DNA from: Patescibacteria group bacterium
GTDB lineage: Bacteria > Patescibacteriota > Minisyncoccia > UBA6257 > 2-01-FULL-56-20
DNA length: 64,000 bases
Assembly: GCA_024654525.1 (NCBI GenBank)
Contig: JANLHI010000032.1
Span: 64,172 to 128,171 of the forward strand
Direction: 5' to 3'
The position numbers were made by a program, and so were the translations under genes. The notes beneath the pieces are model-generated. The model ran no database searches and was not told the DNA's origin. It saw only the letters and a list, made by a program, of their open reading frames with translations. How positions within the stretch are numbered: position 1 is the stretch's first letter; each line of letters opens with the position of its first letter. Below, in pieces: positions 21,760-61,721 of the stretch.

Positions 21760-22104
21760 TTATTTTACGAACTGCACTACCTTCTTGAACACTTCGGGAT
21801 TTTTCATGGCGAGGTCGGAAAGAATTTTTCTGTCCAGCTTCACCTCTTTTTTCTTGAGTGCCGAGATTAATGCGCTATATGACATTTTTTCCTCGCGTGC
21901 TGCGGCGTTAATGCGTACATTCCATAATGCTCGGAATGTTCGCTTTTTTTCTTTTCTCCCACGGAATGCGTGGGTCCACGCATGAAGCAACGCTTCTTTT
22001 GCGGCTCGTTTTTTTGATTTACGCCCCCAACGAAAGCCTTTAGTGCTCTTTAAAATTTTCTCTCTTCGTTTGTGACCACTTACTCCGCGTTTAACTCGTG
22101 GCAT
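21760..22104 (-). CDS. rplT: 50S ribosomal protein L20
   Basis: MPRVKRGVSGHKRREKILKSTKGFRG. Typical L20 N-terminus and size. Confidence 0.9.
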   Translation of the reverse strand: MPRVKRGVSGHKRREKILKSTKGFRWGRKSKKRAAKEALLHAWTHAFRGRKEKKRTFRALWNVRINAAAREEKMSYSALISALKKKEVKLDRKILSDLAMKNPEVFKKVVQFVK

Positions 22105-22107
22105 GGT

Positions 22108-22287
22108 TTAATACGCTACTATTTTTTTCAATGGATAGTCAAGTGAGCGCGACCTTCGCTTGTTCATGATATTCTTATTAGTTTGGCGTGTGCGAAAATG
22201 ATTTACTCTCATTGAACGACGGACAATCTTGCCGTTTTTAGTGATAGTAATCCTGTTTTGCACGCTTTTAGATGTTTTTGTCTTCAT
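22108..22287 (-). CDS. rpmI: 50S ribosomal protein L35
   Basis: MKTKTSKSVQNRITITKNGKIVRR... Small basic protein in the infC-rpmI-rplT arrangement. Start taken at the internal Met. Confidence 0.75.
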   Translation of the reverse strand: MKTKTSKSVQNRITITKNGKIVRRSMRVNHFRTRQTNKNIMNKRRSRSLDYPLKKIVAY

Positions 22288-22300
22288 AGTACGTAGCTTG

Positions 22301-22822
22301 TTATGAGGCGCTTTCCGGTTTTTTGATAATATGGAGTCCCAATCCACGTCCTCCAAACTGCGGTGTGTCTATTTGCTTGTATTCCACCGTGATCATACTC
22401 AGAAATTGTTGCAGACGTTCCATCGCCCATGGTTTATTATATTTTTCACGGCCTCTCAATCGAAGCTGTATCTCTACTTGGCAATTTTCGGAAAGGAACT
22501 TGTCGGTTTGTTTTGACTTGACTAAGAGGTCATTTTTCTGAGCGCGAGCGCTTACTTGTATTTGTTTGAATTCGTTCTTTACGCGCGCCTGTCGTTCCTT
22601 CTTTTTTTGTTTCTCAAGTTCGTATCGATACTTATCAAAACTCATAAGGCGGGCGACGGGAGGCTGTGCGCTTGGAACTATTTCAATAAGATCAATGCCC
22701 TTTTCGGGTTGCGCAAGTTTCAGTGCCTCGTCCCGCGACATTACGCCGAGGTTTTTTCCTTCGGCATCAATTATGCGGAGCTGTTGCGCGACTATTTTAC
22801 TGTTGATACGAGGAGTAATAAT
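22301..22822 (-). CDS. infC: Translation initiation factor IF-3 with a non-AUG (AUU/AUA) start codon
   Basis: The in-frame translation upstream of the annotated Met reads IITPRINSKIVAQQLRIIDAEGKNLGV, which is the conserved IF-3 N-domain. The first in-frame stop upstream is TAG, followed by TAT TTC ATA TCT ATT ATT. C-domain motifs present. Confidence 0.8.
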   Translation of the reverse strand: MITPRINSKIVAQQLRIIDAEGKNLGVMSRDEALKLAQPEKGIDLIEIVPSAQPPVARLMSFDKYRYELEKQKKKERQARVKNEFKQIQVSARAQKNDLLVKSKQTDKFLSENCQVEIQLRLRGREKYNKPWAMERLQQFLSMITVEYKQIDTPQFGGRGLGLHIIKKPESAS

Positions 22823-22931
22823 AGATATGAAATACTACTGCGCTTTCTGAAGCACGCTCTATCATACCGTATCGGTTTGCATGTGTCAAAATATTGCAGT
22901 ATCGGAAGGGGAGTATGATAATGTGGGAGGA

Positions 22932-23741
22932 ATGGATATAGATATGCTTGCGATGAGGGTGCTTAAAAGCTCTAAATACCGGCATGTAACGCCGGAGCTT
23001 GTTGCACGGCTTTGTCGGGTGGAAGTCGAGAAATATAAGGACGGGAAGGATCATGATAAAGATGTGCTCAAGGCGGTTAAAAACAAACTACATCAGGTTG
23101 TCGGAGCGTTTATCGAAGGACGCCCCGATTATAAGAAAGCCCTTCGCATAATCCGCGCCGAAGCGAAAGACATGGATGACGCGCGTGTGCGTACGGCGCT
23201 TGCCACAGCAATGCGACTGCATGCTTCTACGCGTGAACGTTTTCCATTTCTCGACACGTTTTATAAAGAGGTGTTTCGTGATGTGGTGCAACCCACGCGT
23301 ATTCTTGATCTTGCGTGCGGGTTAAATCCACTTGCGCGTCCATGGATGCATATCTCCGATGAAGCGGAATATCTTGCGTGTGATGCACTTTCTGACATGA
23401 CGGAGTTTAATGGCGCGGTATTTGAGGCGCTCGGATGGAAGGGGCATTCATTTACTCTTGATCTTTTGAGCGACAAGCCTCTTCCCACTGCGGATGTGGT
23501 GCTACTTTTGAAAACCCTTCCGTGTCTTGAGCAGGTGGAGAGCGGTGTAAGTGCACGCATTCTTGCGCGCATCAACGCGCCCCGCGTGGTAGTATCATTT
23601 CCGGGAAAAAGTTTGAGTGGGCGTGAAAAAGGAATGAAAGAAAATTATACTACTCGTTTTCTTGAAGTGCTTAAGGGAACCGGATGGATGCAGGAGAATT
23701 TGGTGATAGGGGAGGAGCTTGTATTCCTGCTTTCGCGTTAA
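22932..23741 (+). CDS. 16S rRNA (guanine1405-N7)-methyltransferase, ArmA/Rmt (FmrO) family
   Basis: Blocks recalled from ArmA/RmtB: SKKYR, KLHQ..G, LHASTRER..LD.FY..VF, ILDLACGLNPLA, VVLLLK.LP.LEQ, VSFP.KSLSGREKGM.ENY, IGEEL. Confidence 0.8.
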   Translation: MDIDMLAMRVLKSSKYRHVTPELVARLCRVEVEKYKDGKDHDKDVLKAVKNKLHQVVGAFIEGRPDYKKALRIIRAEAKDMDDARVRTALATAMRLHASTRERFPFLDTFYKEVFRDVVQPTRILDLACGLNPLARPWMHISDEAEYLACDALSDMTEFNGAVFEALGWKGHSFTLDLLSDKPLPTADVVLLLKTLPCLEQVESGVSARILARINAPRVVVSFPGKSLSGREKGMKENYTTRFLEVLKGTGWMQENLVIGEELVFLLSR

Positions 23742-24307
23742 CGCAATACCGCACTCCCGAATGGTACCGAGAATGCACGGCACCATATCCATACCTCATT
23801 GTAGTCGGTGATATCTATAGTGTCGGGGATTTCATAATTTTGACTTCCGATGTTTCCCTTGAGCGCGGCGAGTTGCGCTTCCGGTGCATAGCTTCCGTTT
23901 TTTCCGAGATATACAAACACGTCTGGGCCGTTTGTTACTTTGAAATCACCTTCAAAACGGATGTAATGCGTTGTGCCTATTTTAAGGAGCGTTGCGGTTC
24001 CTTCCGCATTGTGTCCCGCGAGTCCTATGAATGTCCCTTTTGCAAGTGTCTCAAGTACGCCGTTTTTAGGAGTGGTTTCTTGAATAACTGGTGTGATAGG
24101 TGTTTTTTCTGATATGACCGCTGTGTTTTCTTGTGTGGGCGTGGAAGTAGTCGTTGCGGTTGGTATAGATTTTGTATTTATAGGGGTCATGGCAATATCT
24201 TCCAATGATTCATCCACAATATTGTTGATAAAAAGAGGTGAGATGAGCCAGTATGCAACCACGATGATGATAACTATAGATATTCCGAGTACGATTTTCT
24301 TTGTCAT
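23738..24307 (-). CDS. DM13-domain protein with an N-terminal transmembrane anchor and a Thr/Pro-rich linker
   Basis: Transmembrane helix at residues 5-25. Linker TATTTSTPTQENT. C-terminal DM13-like GTATLLKIGTTHYIRFEGDFKVTNGPDVFVYL. Confidence 0.65.
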   Translation of the reverse strand: MTKKIVLGISIVIIIVVAYWLISPLFINNIVDESLEDIAMTPINTKSIPTATTTSTPTQENTAVISEKTPITPVIQETTPKNGVLETLAKGTFIGLAGHNAEGTATLLKIGTTHYIRFEGDFKVTNGPDVFVYLGKNGSYAPEAQLAALKGNIGSQNYEIPDTIDITDYNEVWIWCRAFSVPFGSAVLR

Positions 24308-24351: not shown

Positions 24352-25173
24352 TTATGGTATCGCAATAACAAAACTTGATGAAGCAACATCTACACAATAG
24401 CCGATTGGGTCTGTACTCCTATAACCTCTCACGATTACTCTGTATTCTCCCGTTGGCACCGAATCGGGAACTTCAAACGCCACTTCCGTATCCGACCACG
24501 AATTAATGAGGGGGATAGGGATGCTTAAATCGTTGATAAGAGGGTATCCCCGAATGAATATCGAGGACGATCCCGGATTATTGGTACAGAATCCCGTACC
24601 GGTGATAGTAAATAAACGAGGGTTTGATGTGGATGTCGCTACGACGGGAGTTGAGGTGGATACTTCAAGCGTATCCAAAGTTGATGTTGCCGAAGAAGTT
24701 GCGAGAGTAAGCTCGGTTGAAGTGGCTATAGTATTTTCTGAAATATCTGTAGTAGTAGAGGTGGGCGTAGATGAAGAATTAGACATGGAAAAGGAAGAAG
24801 AAGCGAGTGTGTTTTCAAGAGAAAGAGTTGATGATGTTTCTTCTAAAGCCGTTGAAAGAACTTCTATAACCGCCGATGTTGTTTCTGTGAGTGTTGAGGC
24901 AACGGTAGAAGTTTCTACGAGAGGTTCTAAAATTATGGTTACTTGTTTGAATAAGAAAAACGGGAGTGGATCCGCTTCGATCGCAGAGAGGGGCGAGGAT
25001 GATTGAGAAGATGTTGATGATGGAGAGAGAGGTGTGGAAGTTGTTGTGGTAGAAGGGGTTGCTGTTGATGTGCTTGTGTGTGGAGGCGGGGGAGTGAGCC
25101 ACCCCCCTACAAGTATTATTGGGGCGATCAGCACGGCGATGATTTTTCCGACTATACCACTCAAGAAATTCAT
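24352..25173 (-). CDS. Stalked surface protein paralog 1: transmembrane anchor, Ser/Thr-rich linker, C-terminal two-cysteine Ig-like domain
   Basis: N-terminal transmembrane helix. About 150 aa of S/T low-complexity sequence. C-terminal FTITGTGFC...GYP...SW...PDSVPTGEYRVIVRGY...GYC, shared with ORFs 25799-26599 and 26620-27303. Confidence 0.7.
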   Translation of the reverse strand: MNFLSGIVGKIIAVLIAPIILVGGWLTPPPPHTSTSTATPSTTTTSTPLSPSSTSSQSSSPLSAIEADPLPFFLFKQVTIILEPLVETSTVASTLTETTSAVIEVLSTALEETSSTLSLENTLASSSFSMSNSSSTPTSTTTDISENTIATSTELTLATSSATSTLDTLEVSTSTPVVATSTSNPRLFTITGTGFCTNNPGSSSIFIRGYPLINDLSIPIPLINSWSDTEVAFEVPDSVPTGEYRVIVRGYRSTDPIGYCVDVASSSFVIAIP

Positions 25174-25401: not shown

Positions 25402-25750
25402 GGGGATGATCGGCTTTGATGGAGCTGGAATGCATACCTGCGAGCCGAGTGTGAATCTCGCAAACTTCACAAACCTATTAACTGACAACTCAAAAGTTGC
25501 AGCTCCGGCATTCGCCTACGCGTAATGCTGCTTGCTCGCCAAAACTTTAGTGGCGGCGGGGAGGATCGTGCCATCGGTGTCTCTTCGGTGAATCACGGTC
25601 TTATATAAGGAGGCTCGTCTCATAGTGGTTACTCTGTGCCCTATGGGATTAAAGTACATGGAGTATTCGTACTACTTTGTAGCACTACGCTCGTAGAGGG
25701 TATGTGTCACCCAGTTTCAGACGAGGGTTCAATTCCCTCCATCTCCACCA
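25402..25750 (+). ncRNA. ssrA: tmRNA (ssrA)
   Basis: 5' GGGGATG pairs with 3' CATCTCCACCA. tRNA-like T-arm GAGGGTTCAATTCCCTC. Internal tag ORF GCA AAC TTC ... GCC TAC GCG TAA. Length about 349 nt. Confidence 0.85.
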
Positions 25751-25755
25751 ACAAG

Positions 25756-25784
25756 AACTCCGCGCATGCGGAGTTTTCTTTTGG
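25756..25784 (+). terminator. Rho-independent terminator after ssrA
   Basis: AACTCCGC-GCAT-GCGGAGTT followed by TTCTTTT. Confidence 0.7.
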
Positions 25785-25798
25785 TACACTATAGAGTA

Positions 25799-26599
25799 AT
25801 GATTCACTGGATTATTACCGGTATTATTTTTGTGGCGACAATGGGGACGTTTGCATGGTGGAGGAGTAATGTGCTTGACGAGCTTCCTCCTGCGTCTTCT
25901 CCAATATCCGCTCCCGCAGTAACCCTTCCTCCCATTGAAGCGGATCGTGATGCGTTGTTGCAATTTGAAGAGGACAGGTTACGGCAAAAAGCGAAGGATG
26001 CCGGCGTGGAGTTTACCACGAGTACTCCGTATACGGTTGCAGTTCCAACTTCTTCCGTGATGCAGGTGGCATCTTCTACCGCAGATGCGACAACTTCTTT
26101 TGTGGAGTCAGTGGCATCTTCGACTGTGAAATCTGTGGAAGAATCCCTTCTCACAGAAGAAGTTTTGGAGGTTGCCACGAGTACGGCGGATACTGCCAGC
26201 TCTACTGTTTCCGAAGAGATGGTAGCAAGTAGTACGGCGATAAACGAAGTGACTAGCACGGCTACTATTGCAATACCAAATCCTCCCATCACCATACCTC
26301 CTTCCGCGGCAACCTCTTCGTCTGTCATAACGCTCAGTGCGCGGCAGTTTCTCATTGATGGAGCGGGTTTTTGTAGCTATGAAAAGGGAATATCTTCGGT
26401 AGTATTGTCCGGGTACCCTCTTTCGGTGGATGTGGCGGTGTCCGGTGATTGGATTAAAGAGTGGACAACCACGCGCGTGATTTTCTTTGCACCCGATTCA
26501 ATACCTGCGGGAACTTATAATGTTACGGTGCGTGGGGTGAATAGTTGGGGGTATTGTACGGCATCCACGTCAACGCCAGCATTCATCGTAGTGCCGTAA
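25799..26599 (+). CDS. Stalked surface protein paralog 2
   Basis: Same architecture as paralog 1. C-terminal QFLIDGAGFC...GYP...EW...PDSIPAGTYNVTVRG...GYC. Start moved to an internal Met to clear the ssrA terminator. Confidence 0.65.
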   Translation: MIHWIITGIIFVATMGTFAWWRSNVLDELPPASSPISAPAVTLPPIEADRDALLQFEEDRLRQKAKDAGVEFTTSTPYTVAVPTSSVMQVASSTADATTSFVESVASSTVKSVEESLLTEEVLEVATSTADTASSTVSEEMVASSTAINEVTSTATIAIPNPPITIPPSAATSSSVITLSARQFLIDGAGFCSYEKGISSVVLSGYPLSVDVAVSGDWIKEWTTTRVIFFAPDSIPAGTYNVTVRGVNSWGYCTASTSTPAFIVVP

Positions 26600-26619
26600 G
26601 ATATTTATTGATTCACCTC

Positions 26620-27303
26620 ATGCCCTTATTTTTTAAAAATATATGGATATTGTCCGGTGTGGTGATTGTGGCAATTACGGTGATTGGTGCGGGGATATGG
26701 CAAAAGATTATTCCCCCCCTTCCTTCTTCGCCGTCTGTAATCTCGTCGTCTTCCACTGAAGAAATTTTTATCATTGATCCAATAAAACTTCAGCAAGAAA
26801 TTGAAGAGCTCAAGGCTGCGCGTGATCATATTATTACGCCGAAACCCGTACCACAGGATTCACTTACTACACAAGGGAATGTGATTCCGTTGCAAATGGG
26901 AAACAGCTCCGGTTCGACGGGAGTGACGCCCGCACCAACACAGTCTCAATATGTGCCACCACAGAGCACCACGATACCGCCTGCTTCTCCCGCGATTACC
27001 GTGCCAAGTACTCCTCCCGCCCCCCCGCAAAAATTCACCATTACTGGAAAACGTTTTTGCAGTTATGTTTCCGGTCTTTCCTCCTTGCTTATCACGGGGT
27101 ATCCCTTTACACAGGACGAAGAAGTGGATGCAGAGAATATTACCAGCTGGACTATGACAAGCATCGCGTTCCAGCTTCCTTCCTCGTTTCCTGCAGGGAC
27201 ATATAGCATTACCGTGCGTGGGTATCAGGAATATACATCACAGGGAACGAAACAGTATGGATATTGTAATGACGAAAAAGCGGGTTTTATTAAAGTAAAC
27301 TGA
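26620..27303 (+). CDS. Stalked surface protein paralog 3
   Basis: Transmembrane anchor. Pro/Ser-rich linker. C-terminal KFTITGKRFC...GYP...SW...PSSFPAGTYSITVRGY...GYC. Confidence 0.65.
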   Translation: MPLFFKNIWILSGVVIVAITVIGAGIWQKIIPPLPSSPSVISSSSTEEIFIIDPIKLQQEIEELKAARDHIITPKPVPQDSLTTQGNVIPLQMGNSSGSTGVTPAPTQSQYVPPQSTTIPPASPAITVPSTPPAPPQKFTITGKRFCSYVSGLSSLLITGYPFTQDEEVDAENITSWTMTSIAFQLPSSFPAGTYSITVRGYQEYTSQGTKQYGYCNDEKAGFIKVN

Positions 27304-35812: not shown

Positions 35813-38800
35813 ATGACTGAAGATTTTTCAAAAGGAGAATTTAAATTATCGGAAGGGGATTTCGTCCTCCCGAAGGCGGAAGAGAGTATCCTTGCGTTTT
35901 GGGAGAGTAAGGAAATTTTTGCGAAATCTCTCGAAAAAACAAAAAATGGGAAGCCCTTCACATTCTATGATGGACCTCCGTTTGCAACGGGAACTCCCCA
36001 TTATGGGAGTCTGTTGAGTTCCATTATTAAAGATGTAGTGGGGAGGTATCAGACCATGAAGGGGCGATATGTACGTCGCCGATGGGGTTGGGATTGTCAT
36101 GGATTACCGATTGAAGAAATCGTTGAACGGGAGCTTGGTATTTCGGGGAAGAAGCAAATAGAAGAGCTTGGTATCGAAAAGTTCAATCAGACGTGTCGTA
36201 CTATGGTATTGCAGTATGTTGTTGAATGGAAAAAGATGATTCGTCGTATTGCGCGATGGGTGGATTTTGATAATTCATACAAGACGATGGATCGGGATTT
36301 TATGGAATCCGTATGGTGGGCGTTTAAACAGATGTACGACAAGAATCTTATCTACGAAGGGAGAAAAGTCCTTCTCTATTGTCCGCGGTGCGAGACACCG
36401 GTATCAAACTTTGAAGTGGCGATGGACAACTCGTATAAGGAAGTCACTGAAGAGGCCGTGACGGTGAAATTCAAAGTGAAGCCTGGGCAGAAAATAGGGA
36501 AGTGGGAAGTGCAGGAGCATACCTACTTTATTGCATGGACTACAACTCCATGGACGCTCCCTGGTCATGCGGCTCTCTATGTTTCAGAAACTATGGAATA
36601 CGTACGAGTAAAGCAGGGAAACGAATTTTATATTGTGGCAAAGGCTTTGCTGGAGAATATCTTTAAGGGAATATATGAAGTTTCGGAGGATATCAAGGCA
36701 AAAGATTTAGTTGGCCTTTCTTATACGCCACCGTTTGAGGTTCCCGTAATGGCTTCGCCACAGTCATTTAAGGTGTGGGTTGGAGATTTTGTTACTGCTG
36801 ATGCGGGCACCGGTGTGGTACATAGTGCGGTTGTGCATGGAGAAGAGGATTACCAGCATGGCATAAAATCGGGATTACCCACCGTTTTACTTCTTGATGA
36901 AAAGGGTCACTTCAACGAGAAGGCGCCGGAGCTTGTGCGCGGGCAGTACTTCAAAAAGGCGGACAAGATTATCATTCAAGACCTTGAAACGCGAGGACTG
37001 CTTTTTGCAAAAGCGCCGCATGCGCATTCATACCCTCACTGCTGGCGTTGCGCTACCGCGCTCTTTTATAACGCCATCCCCGCGTGGTTTGTGAATATAC
37101 AAAAAATCAAACCGGAGCTTTTGAAATCAAACGAGAAGGAAATAAATTGGTTTCCCGCGCATCTGAAATTCGGAAGGTATGCGAACAGTGTGTCGCAAGC
37201 TCCCGATTGGAATATTTCTCGGAACCGCTACTGGGGAAATCCCATTCCCGTATGGAAGTGTGAATCGTGCGGGGAAAATACGGTAGTAGGAAGCATTCAC
37301 GAGTTGGGATTAGGAACAAATACGCTTTATGGTGCACGGCATGGACTTGCGGAGAGTAATATCCGCACAATTCACAGCGGATACATGGAGAACGACCCGA
37401 TTGATCTTGTGGAAAAAGGCGTGCAGCAGGCAGAGGAGATGGCGAAACATTTGAAGAAGGGTGGGGGAGTCGATTTGATTGTGTCGTCTGACGTACGACG
37501 TACGAAGCATACTGCAGAAATTGTCGCGAAGATTCTGGGATGTCCCGTAGAATATGATGCGCGTTTACGTGAATGGAATTTGGGTATATGGAATGGCAAG
37601 CCGTGTGAAGGACTGCATCACAAACTTCCTTTTGAGAAGCGATGGACAGAGGCGCCCGAAGGAGGAGAGACGTGGACAGACCTTCAAGCGCGGATGGTGG
37701 AGGCGGTAAAAGATATTAATCAAAAACATAAAAATACGCGAATACTTATTATTAGTCATGGGGATCCGCTGTGGCTTGTGCGGAAATACTTTGGTGCGGA
37801 GACTGGATATCCGGGAGTTGGCGAGGTATTCTCGCTTAACGTCGATATTGACGACCTTCATCGTCCGGGAATTGATGCGGTAACGCTTCCATGTAAATGC
37901 GGTGGCACTGCGCGACGCATTAAAGAGATTTTTGATTCATGGATGGAGGCGGGTTCAATGCCTTTTGCTGAATATCATTATCCTTTTGAGCAAAAGGATT
38001 TATTCGAATCGCGCCTTCCGGCGCAGTTTGTTGCGGAGTATATTCCACAGACGCGTGCATGGTTTTATGTGATGCATGTCACGTCGCTCATTCTTTTTGG
38101 GAAGGCGCCCTTCGAGAATGTGGTAACTACCGGTACCGTGCTTGCCGAGGATGGTGCAAAAATGAGCAAATCAAAACGAAATTATCCTGATCCGTGGGAA
38201 GTGATTGAGCGTTACGGTTCCGATTCTCTTCGATTTTATCTTATGCATTCGCCGGTGATGCAAGCGGAGGATTTAAATTTTAGCGCGCGCGAACTCGAGG
38301 GGCTTCACCGGAAAATTGTGCTCATTTTGTCGAATGTGGAAAAATATTTTGTAACGTACGCAAGGGAGTCAGATTTCAGATATCAGATTTCAGATCTCGG
38401 ACAAGAATCCGAAAATATACTGGATCAATGGATTGTTGCGCGAACAAAAGAATTGGTAAGCGGCGTGACGGAATATATGGATGTCTACGACACCGTGCGT
38501 GCGACACGGATTATTGAAGAATATATCTCTGATCTTTCTACGTGGTATGTACGTCGGAGTAGGGGGAGGAGGGATGAGGTATTTTTTAGAACATTATGCG
38601 ATACGCTTCTTACGACAAGTAAAGTGATTGCGCCTTTCATGCCCTATCTTGCGGAGCATATCTATCACTCGACTCGTGAATTTAGCGGGGTTTTGGAAGA
38701 GTCAGTGCATCTTGTCGATTGGCCGAAAGGGAAAAAACTTACAAAAGACGAGGAGGCGTTGCTTCGTGATATGGTGCTGGTGCGCGATCTTGCGAGTAAA

Positions 38801-39250
38801 GCGCTTGCAGTGAGGAAAACGGCGGGGATTCCCATTCGACAGCCGCTCGCGACGCTGCGAATTAGAAATGGGAACATCGGGAATGATAAAAACAGAATAG
38901 ATTTTATGTGGATATTAGTGGAGGAGTTGAATGTGAAGGAGATTAAAATCGACTCATCTATTTCCGAGGATGTGATGTTTGATACGGTAATCACTCCGGA
39001 ATTAAAAATCGCAGGTTTCGTGCGCGGACTTGAGCGTAGTATTCAAGGGTTGAGAAAAACACAAGGATTTAACGTGGGAGAGGAGGCCGTGCTTTTTTAT
39101 GAAACCGCTGATGTGGATTTGGAGTCTGCGATAAAGCAGGTTGATATAAAGAAAACTTATATTAAGAGTATTAAACGTGCTCAAAAAGAAAATGCTTTAA
39201 AGCACACGTTTGAGGGTAAAGAAATAGGAATTATCCTCGAAAAAGTGTAA
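35813..39250 (+). CDS. ileS: Isoleucyl-tRNA synthetase (type 2) with an in-frame histidine-phosphatase domain insertion
   Basis: PPFATGTPHYGS (HIGH), KMSKS, CP1 editing-domain motifs. At 1145 aa it is about 180 aa longer than expected. Confidence 0.85.
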   Translation: MTEDFSKGEFKLSEGDFVLPKAEESILAFWESKEIFAKSLEKTKNGKPFTFYDGPPFATGTPHYGSLLSSIIKDVVGRYQTMKGRYVRRRWGWDCHGLPIEEIVERELGISGKKQIEELGIEKFNQTCRTMVLQYVVEWKKMIRRIARWVDFDNSYKTMDRDFMESVWWAFKQMYDKNLIYEGRKVLLYCPRCETPVSNFEVAMDNSYKEVTEEAVTVKFKVKPGQKIGKWEVQEHTYFIAWTTTPWTLPGHAALYVSETMEYVRVKQGNEFYIVAKALLENIFKGIYEVSEDIKAKDLVGLSYTPPFEVPVMASPQSFKVWVGDFVTADAGTGVVHSAVVHGEEDYQHGIKSGLPTVLLLDEKGHFNEKAPELVRGQYFKKADKIIIQDLETRGLLFAKAPHAHSYPHCWRCATALFYNAIPAWFVNIQKIKPELLKSNEKEINWFPAHLKFGRYANSVSQAPDWNISRNRYWGNPIPVWKCESCGENTVVGSIHELGLGTNTLYGARHGLAESNIRTIHSGYMENDPIDLVEKGVQQAEEMAKHLKKGGGVDLIVSSDVRRTKHTAEIVAKILGCPVEYDARLREWNLGIWNGKPCEGLHHKLPFEKRWTEAPEGGETWTDLQARMVEAVKDINQKHKNTRILIISHGDPLWLVRKYFGAETGYPGVGEVFSLNVDIDDLHRPGIDAVTLPCKCGGTARRIKEIFDSWMEAGSMPFAEYHYPFEQKDLFESRLPAQFVAEYIPQTRAWFYVMHVTSLILFGKAPFENVVTTGTVLAEDGAKMSKSKRNYPDPWEVIERYGSDSLRFYLMHSPVMQAEDLNFSARELEGLHRKIVLILSNVEKYFVTYARESDFRYQISDLGQESENILDQWIVARTKELVSGVTEYMDVYDTVRATRIIEEYISDLSTWYVRRSRGRRDEVFFRTLCDTLLTTSKVIAPFMPYLAEHIYHSTREFSGVLEESVHLVDWPKGKKLTKDEEALLRDMVLVRDLASKALAVRKTAGIPIRQPLATLRIRNGNIGNDKNRIDFMWILVEELNVKEIKIDSSISEDVMFDTVITPELKIAGFVRGLERSIQGLRKTQGFNVGEEAVLFYETADVDLESAIKQVDIKKTYIKSIKRAQKENALKHTFEGKEIGIILEKV
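37314..37851 (+). other. Histidine phosphatase (PGAM/SixA-like) domain embedded in IleRS between WKCESCGE...SIHELGLG and DLHRPGID...CKCGG
   Basis: LYGARHGLAESN (RHG motif), VSSDVRRTKHTAEIV (second Arg), ILIISHGDPL (catalytic His). The flanking IleRS zinc-knuckle halves are otherwise contiguous in type-2 IleRS. Confidence 0.75.
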
Positions 39251-50228: not shown

Positions 50229-51743
50229 ATGCTTCTAAAACTCTCAAAATTCTTTACTTATATATCGCTGTTTTCAGTACTCGTGGTGGTAAAGTCCACC
50301 TTTTTCCCTTTTATTGGAGGGAAAGCTTATTTTTTTAGAGTTGCGATTGAATTAGCGGTGGCATTCGCTTTTTTGTGGTGGGCGTTTGAAGCGTCGCATG
50401 GTGAGGCGATGCGGCGTGTGCGCACTACGTTTCGCAAACCGCTGGTAATCGCGGTGTCTTTTTTTGCGCTTGCGTTTCTTCTTGCCAGTGTGTTCGCATA
50501 CGATCCTCACGCTGCATTTTGGTCCAATTACGAGCGAGGAGAAGGAGGATTTCAAATGCTTCATTACTACGCATTCTTTTTACTACTTGCAATGTTCTTT
50601 GATACGAGGAAAGATTGGAATCGTTTTTTTGTGACTGCGGTTATTGTGACGATATGTATGGTGGGATATGGTATTGGGGCTGCGGCGCTTACCCCACATT
50701 GTCCCATTGGTACTCATCTTACGGATGCGGGACCGTCCTCGAGTATACCGCAAATATGCACGGGAAGTTCTTTGACTGCTTCAAGTGGTGCCCAATACGC
50801 ACCCGTGAATCGAAGCGTATTCGGATTTGTCGGTCCATACTTACGCATTGACGGTCAGCCTGTTGCGCCGACGTTTCTCGGAAGGATTTTCTCGGATAGG
50901 AGATTTCAAGGGTCTTTGGGAAATCCCGCATATGTAGCACCGTATCTTATGTTCGGGATATTCTATTGTCTCTATCTTGGATTCAAGGAGGGTATTCGAA
51001 AACAAAAGCGGGTATTATGGGTGGTGATAGCTGCGGTATTCTTTATATTTCTTATTCTTACTCAAACGCGAGGAACATTCTTGGGGTTGATTGCGGCAGC
51101 ATTAGTTTTTCTGTTATATCTCGCTATTCGTGGAAGCGGACGTATACGTCGCTTCTCAATCATCACACTTCTCGCTTTTTTTCTGGTTAATGCGACGTTG
51201 TTTATTGCTCATGACAATACGTTGGTGCGAAAAATTCCGTTTGTAGAGCGTTTTTATAATCTTGGTTCTGCAGAAAGTTTTGCGCCACGTCTTTGGACAT
51301 GGGGATCCGCATGGGAAGGATTCAAGGAACGTCCTGTGTTTGGGTGGGGTCCGGAAAATTTCCCTGCGGTGTTTGATGCGCATTTTGATTCGCGTCATTT
51401 TATTCCCGGGCAAGATACTGAAACATGGTTTGATCGCGCACATAGCGTAGTATTCGATTACCTTTCGGAGACGGGGGTTGTCGGATTCTTCGCATATCTT
51501 TCCATCTTTGCGTTTTTCTTCGCGGGATTTTTCGTGCGCGATCGTGTGCGCATGCTTCCGGATGTCCTTATGCGACGTGCATTGATACTTGCACTCCCCG
51601 TGGGATATCTCGTGCAGGCATTAGTCCTCTTTGATGTTCTCCCTATTTATCTCAATCTTTTTATTTTTCTTGCATTCGCCGCATGGTGGTTTGATGCGTC
51701 TCATGACAAAGTGTCGGGGGAGGGAGGGGAGAGTACTCGCTAG
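50229..51743 (+). CDS. O-antigen ligase / Wzy_C-domain polytopic membrane protein
   Basis: More than 10 transmembrane helices. Wzy_C signature region LTQTRGTFLGLIAAALVFLL. Confidence 0.65.
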   Translation: MLLKLSKFFTYISLFSVLVVVKSTFFPFIGGKAYFFRVAIELAVAFAFLWWAFEASHGEAMRRVRTTFRKPLVIAVSFFALAFLLASVFAYDPHAAFWSNYERGEGGFQMLHYYAFFLLLAMFFDTRKDWNRFFVTAVIVTICMVGYGIGAAALTPHCPIGTHLTDAGPSSSIPQICTGSSLTASSGAQYAPVNRSVFGFVGPYLRIDGQPVAPTFLGRIFSDRRFQGSLGNPAYVAPYLMFGIFYCLYLGFKEGIRKQKRVLWVVIAAVFFIFLILTQTRGTFLGLIAAALVFLLYLAIRGSGRIRRFSIITLLAFFLVNATLFIAHDNTLVRKIPFVERFYNLGSAESFAPRLWTWGSAWEGFKERPVFGWGPENFPAVFDAHFDSRHFIPGQDTETWFDRAHSVVFDYLSETGVVGFFAYLSIFAFFFAGFFVRDRVRMLPDVLMRRALILALPVGYLVQALVLFDVLPIYLNLFIFLAFAAWWFDASHDKVSGEGGESTR

Positions 51744-51757
51744 GCTTACATATTTAA

Positions 51758-52396
51758 ATGTCCCCTATACTAAAAAAAATAATTGCGATAGTTGCAACGT
51801 TGGGTCTTGTATACATCGCATATTACGGATCCTATCTTCCTTTGCATAAAGCGCAGGAATATATTAGGACTATGCAGGGGCTTGATACCGTAAGGACTAT
51901 TGATGAGCTTGAGAGGGCCTTTTCTGTGCCGCTTGATTTGCCGTCTCCCATAGGGCAAGAAGAGTTGGTAAGGAATACCGCAACAAATGTCGCTTCTTCC
52001 CTTGCGCGTGGCGTTTCCGATCCGGAAATAGCACAGGAACTTATACGATTTGTAGAGAGTTATTTTGAACCTATCGTGTTACGGGGAAGAGGAATGAGTT
52101 TTGGGCAAGATCTTTATATTTTGGGTTCGCTTCATCGCATTGCGTATGATCAAGGCAATGACCCTGTACATCTTGATGCCGCGATACGTTTCTTTTCCCA
52201 AGGACTTGATCTTAGTCCACAGCGTCCGCAGTTCCTTTATGCATTGCTTGACGTGGTGCGTCTTAAGGGGGATGGGGAAAGCGCGCTTGCGATTGCTCAG
52301 CAGATTAATGCACAGTGGCCGAATGACGGGCGTATTGCCGCGTTTCTCCGTGATCTCAACGAAGCCATTGCGTCATCCACTCCTAATAAAAAATGA
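51758..52396 (+). CDS. Membrane-anchored hypothetical protein, helical repeat (TPR-like)
   Basis: N-terminal transmembrane helix. Alpha-helical repeat composition. Confidence 0.4.
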
Positions 52397-53412
52397 AAAA
52401 AATAAAAAACAAAGTTGCACTTATTTTTGGTGTCACCGGACAGGATGGAAGTTTTTTGGCGGAGCTGTTGCTTGATAAGGGATACGAAGTGCATGGAGTA
52501 ATCCGGCGAGCTTCTACATTTAATACCTCGCGTATCAACCATATCTATGAAGATCCGCATACTACCGATAAGCGTTTTTTCTTGCACTATGGCGATCTTG
52601 CCGATGCGAACACTATCAGAAAATTGTTGTATATGATCATGCCTGATGAAATATATAATCTTGGTGCGCAATCGCATGTGCGTGTGTCATTTGATATTCC
52701 TGAATATACGGCAAATGTAACCGGAGTGGGGGCATTGCGCGTGCTTGAAGCGGCGAAGGATTATGAAGAACATATGAAAAGGAAAGTAAAGTTTTATCAG
52801 GCAAGTTCCTCGGAGATGTTTGGTGCGACACCTCCTCCTCAAAACGAGACAAGCTCATTTTATCCGCGTAGTCCGTACGCGGCGGCAAAATTATTTGCGT
52901 ATAATATGACTCGGAATTATCGCGAAGCGTATGGAATGTTTGCGGTAAACGGGATTCTTTTCAATCATGAATCCGAGCGAAGAGGCGAAACCTTTGTAAC
53001 GCGAAAGATCACGCGCGCAGTGGCGCGAATTAAAGTGGGGAAGGAGAAGAAGCTATTTCTTGGGAATCTTGATGCAAAGCGCGATTGGGGATATGCGCCG
53101 GAGTATATGGAAGCCGCGTGGAGGATGTTGCAGACCGATCGTCCCGATGATTATGTAATCGGTACCGGTGAATCCCACTCCGTGCGAGAATTTGTGGCGG
53201 AGGCGTTTCGTGTTGCGGGGTTGGGGAATTGGAAGAAGTATGTAGGGTTTGATTCTCGTTATCTTCGTCCTACCGAAGTTGAGAGTCTTATCGCCGATAC
53301 GCGAAAAGCAAAAAAGAAACTCGGCTGGAAGGCGAAAGTAACGTTTCCTGAGCTTGTGCGTATCATGGTGGAGGCGGATTGTCGCGAAGAGGGGATTCTT
53401 AATTTGGAATAA
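52393..53412 (+). CDS. gmd: GDP-mannose 4,6-dehydratase
   Basis: [27 protein letters not shown] and [33 protein letters not shown] are typical of Gmd. Confidence 0.9.
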
Positions 53413-53432
53413 TCTTTACGAAGAGGAGTGAG

Positions 53433-54389
53433 ATGTCTATGTTGGAACTTAAAGGAAAAAAAATATTAGTGACGGGAGGGCATGGATTTCTTGGGTCGCG
53501 AATGCTTGCACTTCTCAAGGATGAATATGGAATTCATCCAAGTGATATTTTTACTCCTGGTCGCGAAGAGTTGGATTTACGGTTTCGGGAAAATTGCGTG
53601 CGCGCGGTGGAGCATCAAGATGTGGTGTTCCATCTTGCGGGGACTGTCGGAGGAATAGGTTTTAATCAGGAATATCCGGCCCAGCTTTTCTACGACAATA
53701 TCATGATGGGGGTACAGCTTATGGATGCTGCATATCGCGGAGGAGTAAAAAAATTTATTACACTCGGAACGATTTGTAGTTATCCAAAATTCACTTCAGC
53801 GCCTTTTAAAGAAGAGGATCTTTGGAATGGCTATCCGGAGGAAACCAATGCGCCGTACGGTCTTGCAAAGAAAATGCTTCTTGTGCAGGCGCAGGTATAC
53901 CGTGCGCAGTACGGTTTCAACGGTATTATTCTTTTCCCCACCAACTTATACGGCCCCGGTGATAATTTTGATCTTAAAAATTCACACGTACTCCCCGCAC
54001 TTATCCGAAAAGTTATAGAGGCAAAAAAGGAGGGAAGGAATTATATCGAGGTATGGGGAACCGGAAATGTGACGCGTGAATTTCTTTATGTGGATGATGC
54101 GGCACGCGGCATCATAGAAGCCGCCATGCAATATGATAAATCCGATCCGGTAAATCTCGGATCCGGAAGGGAAATTTCCATCAAAGATCTCGTATCTCTT
54201 ATTTGCAAACTTACAGACTTTGACGGGGAAATTCGTTGGGATGCGACTCGTCCCGATGGTCAGCCTCGTCGTTTTGTTGATACATGCAGAGCTCAAAAAG
54301 AATTCGGTTTTAATTCCGCGATGGAATTTGAAGAGGGAGTGAAGCGCACTATTGAGTGGTACGAAAAAGAGGTTTCTGGAAAAGAGTAA
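53433..54389 (+). CDS. fcl: GDP-L-fucose synthase (GDP-4-keto-6-deoxymannose 3,5-epimerase/4-reductase)
   Basis: ILVTGGHGFLGS. PYGLAKKMLLVQAQVY (catalytic YxxxK). Adjacent to gmd. Confidence 0.85.
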   Translation: MSMLELKGKKILVTGGHGFLGSRMLALLKDEYGIHPSDIFTPGREELDLRFRENCVRAVEHQDVVFHLAGTVGGIGFNQEYPAQLFYDNIMMGVQLMDAAYRGGVKKFITLGTICSYPKFTSAPFKEEDLWNGYPEETNAPYGLAKKMLLVQAQVYRAQYGFNGIILFPTNLYGPGDNFDLKNSHVLPALIRKVIEAKKEGRNYIEVWGTGNVTREFLYVDDAARGIIEAAMQYDKSDPVNLGSGREISIKDLVSLICKLTDFDGEIRWDATRPDGQPRRFVDTCRAQKEFGFNSAMEFEEGVKRTIEWYEKEVSGKE

Positions 54390-54419
54390 AGTTGTTTCTA
54401 AAGTGCAATGTAGTTTGAG

Positions 54420-55913
54420 CTATATAGTATTTTCGGGAGTGGGTGTTGAAATTTTGGTATTTTTCTCGCGCAACGAAGTAAAAAGAGCCAGCATCTCCTG
54501 CGCAAACGGTTCTTTGAGGATGTAGAGCATATTCAGATACACCACTATCGATAAAATTATATTTGCGATAACCGGAAGGAACCCAATGCTTGCGTAGGTA
54601 CACAGTGACATTGTTGCGGTCGCGATGATTAATTTCCCAATGTGCGGACGAGGGTAGTTCATATGCGTTTTTACGCGAGTTAATATGAGCCCCATTACAA
54701 TCACTTGGTTTATTAATGTAGCCCATGCGGAACCGGGTCCTCCGAATGAAGGGATAAGTGCAATATCAAATATTGCATTGCTTATAAATCCTGCGAGTGC
54801 GTACCATCCAAGGATTTTTTGGTCGTTGTGCGCAAGAAGGAGATAGGTAAAGAGTAATATAAAGAAATTTGTTGAGAGTGTAAGAATCAATATTCGAAAG
54901 TTGAGTGATCCCGCTACGAACGAGCTTCCGTATAGTATGGTCATGAGCGGACCGGCAATAATGAGTCCTCCCGCAATAGCAGGAAAAATGAGCGACAGTG
55001 AAAATTGTTGTATTGCCTGACACAGGCGCAAGAGTTTTTCCTTATTTTCTCGGACGAGTCGGGCGAATATGGGGAATGCGACAAGAGGAGAGATACCAAG
55101 AAACGCGTACAGAAGAGTTATCGGTCGTTGTGCGGCGCTGTAGAGCCCTATTTCTTGAGGGGTGCGCAGGAGTCCTAGAATGAATGTATCGGTCGAGAGC
55201 ATGAGTGTTCCTAGGATGCCGGCGAGCGCGAGTGGTATACCGATATGGAGTATCTCGCGCATGGTCGCCCAGCGGATATTGCGAAAAAAGTCGCGGAAGA
55301 GCGGACGAAGAAGATAGGCGGCGGCGATTGCTCCGATTGCGGTTCCCGCCATATACCCTCCAATAAGCGCGAACGCCGTCGGTGCATATGCTATAGAAAG
55401 AAGTCCAAATGCCAATATGCCAAAGTTAGTGAGGAGATTCAGGAGTGCCTCGTATTCCATCTTTTGCCGTGCACGGAGTATGTGAATGCTGGATTCCCGC
55501 AGTGAGTCGAAAACAAGCATGAGCATTGCGAGTGGCAAAAGATGTGAGGCGCCCGGAACAGCGGATATCTGCGCGCCAAAGGCGAATGCGGCGGCAATGC
55601 TTATCGTTACAAGCACCGCTTTCATGGCGATGCCGTTCGCGACATACGAGGCGATTTTCTCCGGCGTTGCAGATATTTGTTTAAAAAGGGCGGTATCAAT
55701 ACCGAGGTCGGAAAATATACCGAGAATTGCGGCAAGACTTATTGCATAGGAAAATACCCCATATTCTCCGGCGCCGATAATGCGCGCGCCGTAAATGACG
55801 ATCCCTGCACGGATAAATCGTCCTCCGATTTGGCTCAAGAATACCCAGAAGGAGTTTTTTGCGAGAGTCTGCTTTATTCCCACATTTTCGAACAAAAAGT
55901 GTTTTATGTGCAT
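54420..55913 (-). CDS. Oligosaccharide flippase (Wzx/MOP superfamily)
   Basis: 497 aa, about 12-14 transmembrane helices. N-terminal region resembles the polysaccharide biosynthesis protein family. Confidence 0.7.
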   Translation of the reverse strand: MHIKHFLFENVGIKQTLAKNSFWVFLSQIGGRFIRAGIVIYGARIIGAGEYGVFSYAISLAAILGIFSDLGIDTALFKQISATPEKIASYVANGIAMKAVLVTISIAAAFAFGAQISAVPGASHLLPLAMLMLVFDSLRESSIHILRARQKMEYEALLNLLTNFGILAFGLLSIAYAPTAFALIGGYMAGTAIGAIAAAYLLRPLFRDFFRNIRWATMREILHIGIPLALAGILGTLMLSTDTFILGLLRTPQEIGLYSAAQRPITLLYAFLGISPLVAFPIFARLVRENKEKLLRLCQAIQQFSLSLIFPAIAGGLIIAGPLMTILYGSSFVAGSLNFRILILTLSTNFFILLFTYLLLAHNDQKILGWYALAGFISNAIFDIALIPSFGGPGSAWATLINQVIVMGLILTRVKTHMNYPRPHIGKLIIATATMSLCTYASIGFLPVIANIILSIVVYLNMLYILKEPFAQEMLALFTSLREKNTKISTPTPENTI

Positions 55914-56024
55914 ATGCGTTTACAATAGTACCCTCCTCCGAGAGTGAAAGCGAGTTCTTTATTGGAGAAGGATGCTTCTTTAGAATTCCTTTGCATCATG
56001 GTAAAATCCAGCCATTGCGATTCT

Positions 56025-56954
56025 ATGTCTAAGATTAAAATATGCGTTCTTGGAAACAAAGGATTTCTTGGGAGTAAAATTGTAGCGCGACTTTGTCGTA
56101 ATCCAAAATTTAAAATTCTCCCCATGATTCACAAGGGAGATTTTACCAAGCTTTCACATTGTAGACGTGCAGTACGCGGTGCCGATATAGTGATACATGC
56201 TGCGGGATTAGTGACAAGTCGCATGCATCAATCGGAGCATCCTGCAGAAATTTTCTATACCAATTCGCTCCTGACCTTTCAAGTGTTTGAAGCATGCCGA
56301 AGAGAGAAAGTCCCCAATGTGATTACGTTCAGTTCGAGTACCGCGTTTTCCGTTTCGGGGAAATCTCGAGTGGGAATTTCCGATTTATTTGAAAGTATTC
56401 CACATATCAACGGCTCTTTTGGTTTTTACGGTATGAGTCGTTGGCTCGTTCCTTTTGTAGCCCATGCATATGCCGCAGAATATGGTATGCGTTCTCGTGT
56501 GATTGTGTTCCCGAATCTTTACGGACCGGGAGATAAATTTGACCATGCTGTTCCGCCTCTTGTTGCGAATCTTATTCGGGAAGTTGATGGGGTTTCTCGC
56601 CGAGGGGAGAAAATATTTTTTGGAGGAAATAACAAAGAACAGCGCATTGATTTGCTTTATATTGATGATGCGGTAGATTTGGTGGAGCGTATCGCGATGC
56701 ATCCCGGAGGTGAGAGCGTTCTTTGTGTTACTGCGGGATCGGGGACTTCGATTTCCATAGGACGTGTCGTGGAAACGATTGCACGCGAAGCGCATTTCAA
56801 AGGAAAAATTTCATGGATAGAGGGACCTGTATCGTCGGGGATAGTGTTGCATAATCGGGAGGTGAGTTTGCGTTGGAGGTGGAAGCCGAAAACTTCTTTT
56901 ACTGCGGGCGTACGTCAAACGTTACACTGGTTTTTTGAACATCATGGCCATTAA
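56025..56954 (+). CDS. NAD-dependent sugar epimerase/dehydratase (extended SDR)
   Basis: ICVLGNKGFLGSKI Rossmann motif. YGMSRWL (YxxxK). Start taken at the internal Met. Confidence 0.7.
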   Translation: MSKIKICVLGNKGFLGSKIVARLCRNPKFKILPMIHKGDFTKLSHCRRAVRGADIVIHAAGLVTSRMHQSEHPAEIFYTNSLLTFQVFEACRREKVPNVITFSSSTAFSVSGKSRVGISDLFESIPHINGSFGFYGMSRWLVPFVAHAYAAEYGMRSRVIVFPNLYGPGDKFDHAVPPLVANLIREVDGVSRRGEKIFFGGNNKEQRIDLLYIDDAVDLVERIAMHPGGESVLCVTAGSGTSISIGRVVETIAREAHFKGKISWIEGPVSSGIVLHNREVSLRWRWKPKTSFTAGVRQTLHWFFEHHGH

Positions 56955-58161
56955 AAATAAATTAAAAATTGCGGTAGGATCGCTGAAAATCGGCTCATTT
57001 GCAAAAAAGCTGATTCAAAAGACGCTTCATAATAATCGCTTGACGTATGGCGATATCACTATTGAATTTGAAAATAAATTTGCACGCGAACATGGGTGTC
57101 GTTACGGACTTTTTACGGTAAGCGGAACTTCAGCGCTTCAAATAGCGCTTCATGCAATGAAAGGCTTGCATGCATGGAAGAATGGAGATGAAGTGCTGGT
57201 ACCCTCCGTAACATTTATTGCCACATCTAATGTGGTGATTCAAAACGGATTAAAGCCGGTGTTTGTCGATGTGGATCCGCGGACATATTTAATGTCTCCT
57301 GAAAATATTAAATCCCATATCACTTCCCGTACGCGAGCAATCATGCCTGTGCATCTTTTCGGTCGTCCCGCGGAGATGAAAAAAATTACCGCGTTGGCGC
57401 GGCGGTATAAGTTGAAAGTTATTGTTGATTCTTGTGAGACGATGGGGGTGGAGTATCTTGATAAGCCTTTGGGGCAATGGGGGGATATTGTGTGTTTTTC
57501 GACATATGCCGCTCACCTTCTTATCACCGGCGTGGGAGGATTGGCGATTACGAATAATTCCGTATATGCGACAAAGATGCGGAGCTTGATGAATCATGGG
57601 CGGGATACAATCTACTATAATATCGATCAAGATGATCATGTGTTTTCCCGCAAGAAGATGTATAAATTGGTAGATAGACGTTTTTCTTTTATTGATGTGG
57701 GGTATAGCTACCGACTTACCGAACTTGAGGCTGCTCTTGGACTTGAAGGATTGCGTGATTTGAGTGCTAATGTGGCGGCGCGCCAGAAAAATTACCGCTT
57801 GTTTCTTGAGGCGCTCGCGCCTTATGCACGCGACCTCCAGTTGCCGATCTTACAAAAGGGGGAGGTATGCGCGTGTATGATGTTTCCCATCGTTATTCGT
57901 CCGGAGAGTAATATCCAACGGGCGGAACTTATCGCATTTCTTGAAACACACGGCATCGAGACCCGCTACGCAATGCCGCTTCTTTCCCAGCCGATCTATC
58001 AGAAGCTTTTCCCCGGATACGAGAAGCGGTATCCAGTGGCGCGCTGGATGGATAAGAACGGATTTTATATAGGATGTCATCAATATCTTTCCGAAAAAGA
58101 TGTGCGGTATGTGGTTACGGTGTTTAAAAAATTTTTCGGGCATAAGACATTGTTTTCATGA
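56935..58161 (+). CDS. DegT/DnrJ/EryC1/StrS-family PLP sugar aminotransferase
   Basis: FTVSGTSALQIALHAM. Family-typical length and motifs. Confidence 0.75.
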   Translation: MNIMAIKNKLKIAVGSLKIGSFAKKLIQKTLHNNRLTYGDITIEFENKFAREHGCRYGLFTVSGTSALQIALHAMKGLHAWKNGDEVLVPSVTFIATSNVVIQNGLKPVFVDVDPRTYLMSPENIKSHITSRTRAIMPVHLFGRPAEMKKITALARRYKLKVIVDSCETMGVEYLDKPLGQWGDIVCFSTYAAHLLITGVGGLAITNNSVYATKMRSLMNHGRDTIYYNIDQDDHVFSRKKMYKLVDRRFSFIDVGYSYRLTELEAALGLEGLRDLSANVAARQKNYRLFLEALAPYARDLQLPILQKGEVCACMMFPIVIRPESNIQRAELIAFLETHGIETRYAMPLLSQPIYQKLFPGYEKRYPVARWMDKNGFYIGCHQYLSEKDVRYVVTVFKKFFGHKTLFS

Positions 58162-59324: not shown

Positions 59325-59328
59325 GGCT

Positions 59329-60402: not shown

Positions 60403-60601
60403 AGGTGTATTCCTATACTCCGAGGAGGAGCGACGCAGGTATTGCAGAAATTAGCTATATCCTTTCGGGTTCCGCGAGGGCACCCGCCCGGCGGCGTTAC
60501 TCGTCGGAGCTGTGCCACGAGGCACTAATCTCCTTCTCGCGTCTTGCCGGGTCGGATTGCCCTCGCAGGAACGCGGTTGAGGAGGGGTTTTGAAGTGGGG
60601 T

Positions 60602-61714: not shown

Positions 61715-61721
61715 GATAAAT

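Follow-up and report, generated by a model that had tools for sequence, protein, structure and literature searches.

Known enzymes that form m7G1405 in 16S rRNA include Sgm, the sisomicin-gentamicin resistance methylase of Micromonospora zionensis (PDB 3LCU/3LCV), with related enzymes of other aminoglycoside producers, and the ArmA and RmtA-H enzymes of Gram-negative pathogens. Uncharacterised FmrO homologues from Chloroflexi already appear in a tree published by Nosrati et al. (2019; 10.1101/712810). 'Resistance-like' methyltransferases have also been listed for the Candidate Phyla Radiation (CPR, Patescibacteria) in bulk similarity screens, where most matches were 17-30% similar to the references (Maatouk et al. 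2021, PMC8651080; 10.64898/2026.07.13.738296). Here we describe an fmrO-like gene, called rmt below, in a stretch of 64,000 nucleotides (64 kb) of a Patescibacteria genome (assembly GCA_024654525.1, contig JANLHI010000032.1, positions 64,172 to 128,171); this whole stretch is referred to as the window. The genome belongs to a CPR bacterium that resembles Liptonbacteria, and rmt lies divergently beside the gene for translation initiation factor IF3, infC. We consider it probable that rmt encodes an intact 16S rRNA G1405-N7 methyltransferase that acts on the cell's own 30S subunits, and that the gene is chromosomal, long resident and dispensable.

The rmt protein matches the Pfam FmrO profile (PF07091) at positions 1-254 of 255, with E=7.6e-53 and 180 bits against a cutoff of 27. 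Among solved structures, only m7G1405 methyltransferases match it significantly, namely Sgm (3.6e-53), RmtF (1e-39), RmtB (3e-33), RmtC (2.5e-26) and ArmA (7e-24). Aligned identity to ArmA, RmtB-F and Sgm is 31-40%, with Sgm the closest at about 40%. A preliminary description of this DNA, made from the letters alone, had placed the product in the ArmA/Rmt family on the strength of conserved sequence blocks. These are present almost verbatim (SSKYRH, NKLHQ, LHASTRERFPFLDTFYKEVF, ILDLACGLNPLA, LLLKTLPCLEQ, VSFPGKSLSGREKGMKENY and IGEEL), one of them differing by a single letter (SSKYR, not SKKYR). Family membership is borne out by the profile and similarity searches, whose best matches are the FmrO profile and m7G1405 enzymes, by the catalytic residues and by the complete N1/N2/Rossmann architecture.

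This architecture was seen in an AlphaFold2 model based on 58 homologues (mean predicted local distance difference test score, pLDDT, 94.6; predicted template modelling score, pTM, 0.91), in which helical N1 and N2 subdomains precede a class I Rossmann methyltransferase domain. A stretch of lower confidence, at about residues 221-240, corresponds to a loop that is disordered in RmtC. In Foldseek comparisons the model fits Sgm over the whole chain with a template modelling score (TM) of 0.91 and a root-mean-square deviation (rmsd) of 1.7; the query TM is 0.83 for RmtF, 0.79 for RmtB and 0.72-0.78 for RmtC. All of the top 16 PDB matches are m7G1405 methyltransferases, and the next family or fold follows at TM 0.50. 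Sgm is the best match in structure as in sequence, and it shares the N1/N2/C-terminal-domain layout as well as the catalytic and docking residues. The ArmA and RmtA-H enzymes share the Pfam family and the fold.

Residues tested in RmtC (10.1101/712810; PMC10054953) were mapped onto the rmt protein in an alignment with RmtC, RmtB, ArmA, RmtD, RmtE, RmtF and Sgm. Sixteen of the 18 functional residues compared are kept (Table 1). They include K204, Y60 and K236, whose roles in the positioning of G1405 were described by Srinivas et al. (PMC10054953). RmtC K20, Y21, R39, K47, R50, H54, Y60, K204, K236, R241 and M245, a set that ties rmt to the enzymes of Gram-negative pathogens, are identical or conservatively replaced. 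From fold and residues we infer both the target nucleotide and the resistance phenotype. If docking resembles that of RmtC, the basic N1/N2 face (K15, Y16, K34, K47, K50) would settle on the assembled 30S subunit, at the surface formed by h24/h27/h44/h45. H54, K226 and a flexible loop at about residues 227-238 (R231, M235, N238) would then distort h44 and flip out G1405, with F60 and K194 positioning the base and S99, R103, D151 and D177 holding S-adenosylmethionine (SAM). The enzyme would thus use SAM to turn G1405 into m7G in the 16S rRNA of its own host, and the modified ribosome would be insensitive to 4,6-disubstituted deoxystreptamine (4,6-DOS) aminoglycosides.

Some intact CPR orthologues depart from this pattern at positions that are essential in RmtC. 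The orthologue from a groundwater Liptonbacteria metagenome-assembled genome (MAG; locus L001, protein P0002) carries K15T and Y16H, and that on a short contig (L044, protein P0004) carries R231Q. Judged from the sequences, these substitutions hint that, in the lineages concerned, constraint has relaxed or docking to the 30S subunit has changed. None of the three changes occurs in the window copy.

The position of rmt is conserved among its relatives. The order PolX-NUDIX-rplT-rpmI-infC, with rmt divergent from infC, is common to the window, L001, a second Liptonbacteria MAG (L002, isolate name M_DeepCast_50m) and L035, the closest GTDB representative genome; the pair of infC and rmt is also found on L044. 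The same infC-adjacent site therefore recurs in independent assemblies from different samples, with CPR orthologues that are 54-61% identical. In L035, the gene at this site (L035 5962-6612) is a pseudogene: it carries two single-base indels and has lost the D177-K194-LPCLEQ region through a deletion of about 155 bp, changes for which an assembly error is possible. Four other relatives (L038-L041), whose IF3 is 69-73% identical to that of the window and so as similar as the IF3 of rmt carriers, keep the PolX-NUDIX-rplT-rpmI-infC block without rmt at the site; tblastn detected no rmt remnants in these four loci, even at E=10.

A tree of concatenated flanking proteins (701 columns; neighbour-joining, Kimura-corrected distances) groups L035 with the rmt-less L038 and L041 at 99.5% bootstrap, with the rmt-bearing L001 as sister to this group. 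The rmt-bearing L002 pairs with L039 at 100%, and the window is the deepest branch. Together with the conserved site, this pattern points to an ancestral rmt beside infC and to repeated loss, with L035 caught in the course of losing the gene. On the simplest history, the common ancestor already carried rmt next to infC, and no fewer than two or three losses followed. In this group of close relatives, rmt is an accessory, dispensable and repeatedly lost gene. The preliminary description was correct in reporting a housekeeping neighbourhood divergent from infC (infC-rpmI-rplT occupies the minus strand from 22828 to 21760), but rmt is not itself a fixed housekeeping gene, being decayed in L035 and absent without trace from L038, L040 and L041.

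The MAG GCA_964555255.1 differs in that its rmt orthologue is not beside infC (locus L039) but on a 4-kb contig (L014). At L014 2374-3930, the orthologue lies 260 bp from a truncated transposase of insertion sequence (IS) type (HTH_28 and partial rve), and it adjoins dCTP deaminase and dUTPase genes; the infC locus of the same MAG contains part of a recombinase and a scaffold gap made up of N (L039 3768-5000). These features are what might be expected if rmt were a recent mobile resistance determinant, or a chimera of assembly or binning. The gene tree pairs the L014 orthologue with that of L002, as the flanking-gene (species) tree predicts, and the L014 copy looks like a relocation within the genome, with the binning of this short contig uncertain.

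Elsewhere the evidence speaks against mobility. No integrase or transposase flanks rmt in the window, and the same insertion site is used in independent assemblies. Where they can be compared, the gene tree and the flanking-gene tree agree. The composition of rmt is that of the surrounding chromosome, as the preliminary description had noted: its guanine plus cytosine (GC) content is 48.9%, compared with 46.5 +/- 2.9% for the 56 genes of the window, its GC content at third codon positions (GC3) has z=0.09, and its codon-usage distance ranks 28 of 56. A plasmid collection gave 1596 matches, which are ArmA/Rmt alleles (RmtB, C, D, E, F) with an identity to the rmt protein of at most about 35%, all of them below 36%, and held no close mobile relative of rmt. 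A mobile or chimeric origin is thus very improbable, and vertical inheritance at the infC site, with native composition, upholds the earlier view that rmt is not a recent mobile resistance gene.

The closest relatives of rmt form a small group. Only four other clusters (at 90% identity) exceed 50% identity to the rmt protein: two from Candidatus Liptonbacteria, one from a Saccharibacteria-labelled MAG and one without a label. The next tier, at 40-48% identity, is mostly from Chloroflexota. When 1.84 billion cluster representatives were searched exhaustively, a single one covered rmt's own group, and the FmrO family numbers 381 representatives (50% identity level) at E<=1e-30. Carrier genomes were found by a scan with two peptide patterns, and their list is a sample rather than a census. 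The family, which the preliminary description knew from aminoglycoside producers and plasmids, is therefore wider, as the Chloroflexi homologues noted in 2019 (10.1101/712810) had indicated. An identical protein, encoded on a 193-kb contig, is already public in GenBank under the name 'MAG: 16S rRNA methyltransferase [Patescibacteria group bacterium]', so the protein itself is already annotated. Like the CPR proteins of the earlier screens, rmt comes from a CPR genome and bears a resistance-type rRNA methyltransferase annotation. It differs from those proteins, as far as their descriptions allow comparison, in that it is an FmrO orthologue over its full length and its synteny is conserved.

A neighbour-joining tree was built from 47 sequences (Kimura-corrected distances); its deep branching order is not to be trusted. 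In this tree the CPR rmt sequences form one clade with 100% bootstrap. This clade falls inside or beside Chloroflexota at 62%, and Sgm, ArmA and RmtB-F are outside the CPR plus Chloroflexota group. The two groups share the motif LEQ[VAI][DE]K, and K226 is kept in the CPR clade and variable in Chloroflexota. Since rmt is limited to a narrow CPR group, and its nearest homologues include a broad range of Chloroflexota, the most economical account is that it was transferred long ago from a donor of Chloroflexota type. Such a transfer probably took place, in a direction that we infer from this distribution. The gene would have moved into the ancestor of the Liptonbacteria-like CPR group, settled beside infC and then been inherited vertically. 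The suggestion that rmt bears on the origin of the Rmt genes fares less well: it is only 31-38% identical to the clinical enzymes, belongs to a separate, Chloroflexota-type clade, and unlike them is chromosomal, with native composition and without plasmid or transposon context. By these measures, the distance to ArmA and the Rmt enzymes is too great for rmt to have been where they came from.

The Chloroflexota homologues resemble rmt most closely among non-CPR sequences and are found in a different genomic context. In all 13 Chloroflexota loci with enough flanking sequence, fmrO is directly downstream of tgt (tRNA-guanine transglycosylase), and the same order occurs in one Bacillota, one Planctomycetota and two unclassified genomes. 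Several fmrO loci also have an adjacent rsmI (16S Cm1402), which scores 224.7 bits with TIGR00096, where the cutoff is 167.9. In some Chloroflexota loci a second fmrO paralogue and then rsmE (16S m3U1498) follow, and an Ardenticatenaceae genome has rsmF (16S m5C1407) divergent from tgt. Such clusters were seen, for example, at L018 4247-8308 and in L021, L024, L025, L026, L042, L043 and others. In the window tgt is absent, and the CPR gene stands alone beside infC. No mention of the linkage of tgt, fmrO and rsm genes was found in the literature searched (16S-RMTase with Chloroflexi; G1405 with queuine).

The tandem FmrO paralogues, which are about 35% identical to each other, occur in four loci labelled Anaerolineae and in L042 (Table 1); in L018 the stop and start codons of the pair overlap. 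The second paralogue keeps K204, H54, D160 and R111 (RmtC numbering), has M245 replaced by L and N248 by G, and forms a long branch of its own.

The enzymes encoded by tgt, rsmI, rsmE and rsmF modify the decoding centre or the anticodon. The recurrence of fmrO in these RNA-modification clusters argues that, in the clade to which rmt belongs, the enzyme would act as one of the cell's regular RNA-modifying enzymes. This leads to a second explanation with the same enzyme and the same chemistry, in which the gene is kept for the tuning of the ribosome and resistance is a by-product, m7G1405 being a mark like Cm1402, m5C1407 or m3U1498. Besides the context of the sister genes, the place of the CPR gene next to infC-rpmI-rplT fits this idea, as does the lack of antibiotic biosynthesis near rmt. 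In E. coli, m7G1405 enzymes change translational fidelity and stress tolerance and carry fitness costs (PMC12406665); such costs would explain the loss of rmt whenever its benefit lapses. Poor uptake of aminoglycosides, which CPR bacteria may share (10.64898/2026.07.13.738296), would also agree with this explanation. The patchy retention and repeated loss, however, fit a gene that is useful only under certain conditions no less well, although housekeeping rRNA methyltransferases are also individually dispensable, and native m7G1405 outside producers is not documented in the literature searched. We would put ribosome tuning somewhat short of an even chance. The G1405 methyltransferase may be retained because it protects from 4,6-DOS aminoglycosides in the environment, or because it tunes decoding and confers resistance only incidentally. 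The gene context speaks for the second possibility, and patchy retention is compatible with both.

The same context suggests that FmrO is, in its origins, a family that modifies rRNA in environmental bacteria and not a device of antibiotic producers. On a wider scale, m7G1405 might be a native, non-antibiotic mark of the decoding centre in Chloroflexota and a few other phyla, its gene encoded together with tgt, rsmI, rsmE and rsmF. A Liptonbacteria-like CPR lineage would have captured the enzyme across phyla and retained or dropped it as need dictated, with the producer and clinical enzymes as offshoots and the carriers naturally insensitive to 4,6-DOS. We put this forward tentatively, as a picture that is more doubtful than probable. 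If the rmt enzyme is active, an ultra-small CPR group would have ribosomes that are modified intrinsically so as to block most aminoglycosides in clinical use. The trait would be as old as the divergence of these species, and the loss of its gene is visible in progress. The tgt/rsmI/rsmE/rsmF context in Chloroflexota, Bacillota and Planctomycetota may matter more than rmt itself, and the linkage of tgt, fmrO and rsmI/E/F in other phyla is the most useful lead obtained here.

Several observations weigh against an active, resident G1405 methyltransferase. The NCBIfam equivalog model of the Rmt family (NF000466) gives the protein 248.4 bits (248.1 for a 286-residue form), just under the cutoff of 250, and the other CPR and Chloroflexota members tested score 197-244, all below it; on these scores, the entire environmental clade is just outside what NCBI names Rmt. 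Models of individual allele families give 93-141 bits against cutoffs of 500-550, the best being RmtF (141 against 500). The two RmtC residues that are not kept are R211, which is Q201 in the rmt protein, as Q also is in the active enzymes ArmA and RmtE, and Q212, a contact to the SAM adenine, which is V202. The latter position is V, A, I or L in most of the CPR plus Chloroflexota clade, E in RmtB, and marks a difference from Sgm. No rRNA gene, and so no host 16S carrying G1405, was found in the window, where Rfam and ARAGORN gave only the tmRNA and two tRNAs. A consensus scan passed no plus-strand promoter upstream of rmt. The deep nodes of the gene tree are weak (5-62%) and do not establish the donor lineage. 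Finally, in a 2026 preprint two CPR methyltransferases, one of them annotated as a G1405 methyltransferase, brought no change in aminoglycoside minimum inhibitory concentrations (MICs) in E. coli, and its authors regard CPR bacteria as poor at aminoglycoside uptake, as they have no respiratory chain (10.64898/2026.07.13.738296). These negative MICs are a caution and not a refutation, because the tested proteins come from WWE3 and another Parcubacteria assembly, i.e. from CPR groups other than that of rmt, and the text interchanges the labels of the two (10.64898/2026.07.13.738296).

Part of this evidence might also be read as a sign that rmt is a diverged protein of FmrO fold that has changed its substrate (to a different site in 16S rRNA, some other RNA or a small molecule) and confers no resistance. 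The score under the equivalog threshold, the clade-wide change of Q212 to V, A or I at the SAM adenine contact and the MIC-negative CPR methyltransferases (10.64898/2026.07.13.738296) would agree with this, and the tandem paralogues of some Chloroflexota suggest a functional split within the family. Against it, all residues that dock to the 30S subunit, distort h44 or contact G1405 are kept, including K194, F60, H54, R231 and M235, the model fits Sgm at full length with an rmsd of 1.7, and an FmrO-family member with another substrate was not found in the literature searched. An altered substrate is thus unlikely, and methylation of G1405 in the host's own ribosomes remains the explanation that we prefer.

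The preliminary description had offered intrinsic 16S modification and self-protection as alternatives. An intrinsic, non-mobile modification agrees with the results above. Self-protection of an aminoglycoside producer, as for Sgm, GrmA and KgmB, would make sense of the fact that Sgm, an enzyme of a producer, is the nearest relative that has been characterised, and two DegT/StrS-family aminotransferases are indeed present at 57-62 kb. These genes, however, sit with a Wzy-like ligase, a flippase, a GDP-mannose dehydratase and a GT4 glycosyltransferase in a surface-polysaccharide cluster 33 kb from rmt. Among the window proteins scanned, over 64 kb, there are no genes of aminoglycoside biosynthesis and nothing like a 2-deoxystreptamine pathway. 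Also, rmt is outside biosynthetic clusters in every relative examined, and unlike Sgm and the other producer enzymes it is found in a CPR host with a small genome. Self-protection is hardly credible under these circumstances. The polysaccharide cluster itself, which also includes an epimerase and whose dehydratase is a GDP-mannose 4,6-dehydratase, resembles amino-sugar glycan synthesis and not an aminoglycoside pathway.

The reading frame of rmt is uninterrupted on the plus strand from 22881 to the stop codon at 23739-23741, with in-frame starts at ATG 22881 (the GenBank-style start, giving 286 residues), GTG 22923 and ATG 22932. The N-termini of homologues agree with a start at 22932 (or 22923), and a reading from 22881 would run over the -35 box (22889..22884) of the infC promoter. 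This promoter and the leader that follows it are conserved in L001, L002 and L035, all of which have rmt or its remains, and the same promoter motif was seen by eye upstream of infC in the rmt-less L038, L040 and L041. Promoter and leader hairpin together may form an autoregulatory leader. On the rmt side, a weak promoter candidate (TTGCAG-17-GATAAT, 22894-22922) was rejected, as it is not conserved in L001, L002 and L035. The DM13-domain neighbour of rmt is also present in L002.

Table 1. Features of the rmt locus and window, residues of the rmt protein that correspond to functional residues of RmtC, and tandem fmrO pairs in other loci.
Feature	Position	Strand	Remarks
rmt (fmrO-like) coding sequence	22932..23741	+	269 residues and stop; predicted SAM-dependent 16S rRNA (guanine1405-N7) methyltransferase
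Divergent intergenic region, infC start to rmt start	22829..22931		Holds the infC promoter
infC promoter	22861..22889	-	Sigma-70-like, TTGACA-17-TATGAT, 11/12 matches; followed by GAGCGTG(C/T)TTC leader hairpin
infC (IF3)	22301..22828	-	Non-ATG start, ATA 22828 or ATT 22822; from translation, compared with L002 IF3
rpmI (L35)	22108..22287	-	Open reading frame, tblastn synteny, Pfam Ribosomal_L35p in orthologous loci
rplT (L20)	21760..22104	-	Open reading frame and synteny
DM13-domain gene	23738..24307	-	Convergent; Pfam DM13 E=5.2e-19; overlaps rmt stop by 4 bp
Ser/Thr-rich protein	24352-25173	-	Apparently membrane-anchored
tmRNA gene	25402-25750		
Ser/Thr-rich protein	25766-26599	+	Apparently membrane-anchored
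Ser/Thr-rich protein	26545-27303	+	Apparently membrane-anchored
Isoleucyl-tRNA synthetase	35813-39250	+	1145 residues
Surface-polysaccharide cluster	50229-62818		
30S docking	K15, Y16, K34, K47, K50		RmtC K20, Y21, R39, K47, R50
h45 clash / h44 distortion	H54, R231, M235, N238		RmtC H54, R241, M245, N248
G1405 positioning	F60, K194, K226		RmtC Y60, K204 (universally conserved), K236
SAM binding	S99, R103, D151, D177		RmtC S107, R111, D160, D188
Tandem fmrO pair, L018	6001-7592		
Tandem fmrO pair, L021	6001-7583		
Tandem fmrO pair, L025	6001-7592		
Tandem fmrO pair, L026	4550-6035		
Tandem fmrO pair, L042	4001-5627		

The remainder of the window is a typical CPR chromosome segment. The genes identified encode PolA, CTP synthase, RuvA, FemAB, a Mur ligase, UDG, a ClpB-like ATPase, PolX, a NUDIX protein and ArgRS, and further IleRS, TrpRS/TyrRS, RNase J and RNase Y, in addition to the tmRNA and the surface-polysaccharide cluster.

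In the isoleucyl-tRNA synthetase (IleRS), the catalytic domain is split into two halves by an inserted histidine-phosphatase domain (His_Phos_1, E=5e-34) at residues 508-659. Close to rmt, three genes for Ser/Thr-rich proteins flank the tmRNA gene. These proteins have no Pfam match and share a common C-terminal domain of about 85 residues with the motif F.I.G.GFC...G.SS....GYP; homologous C-terminal domains are present in L002, L035 and L038.

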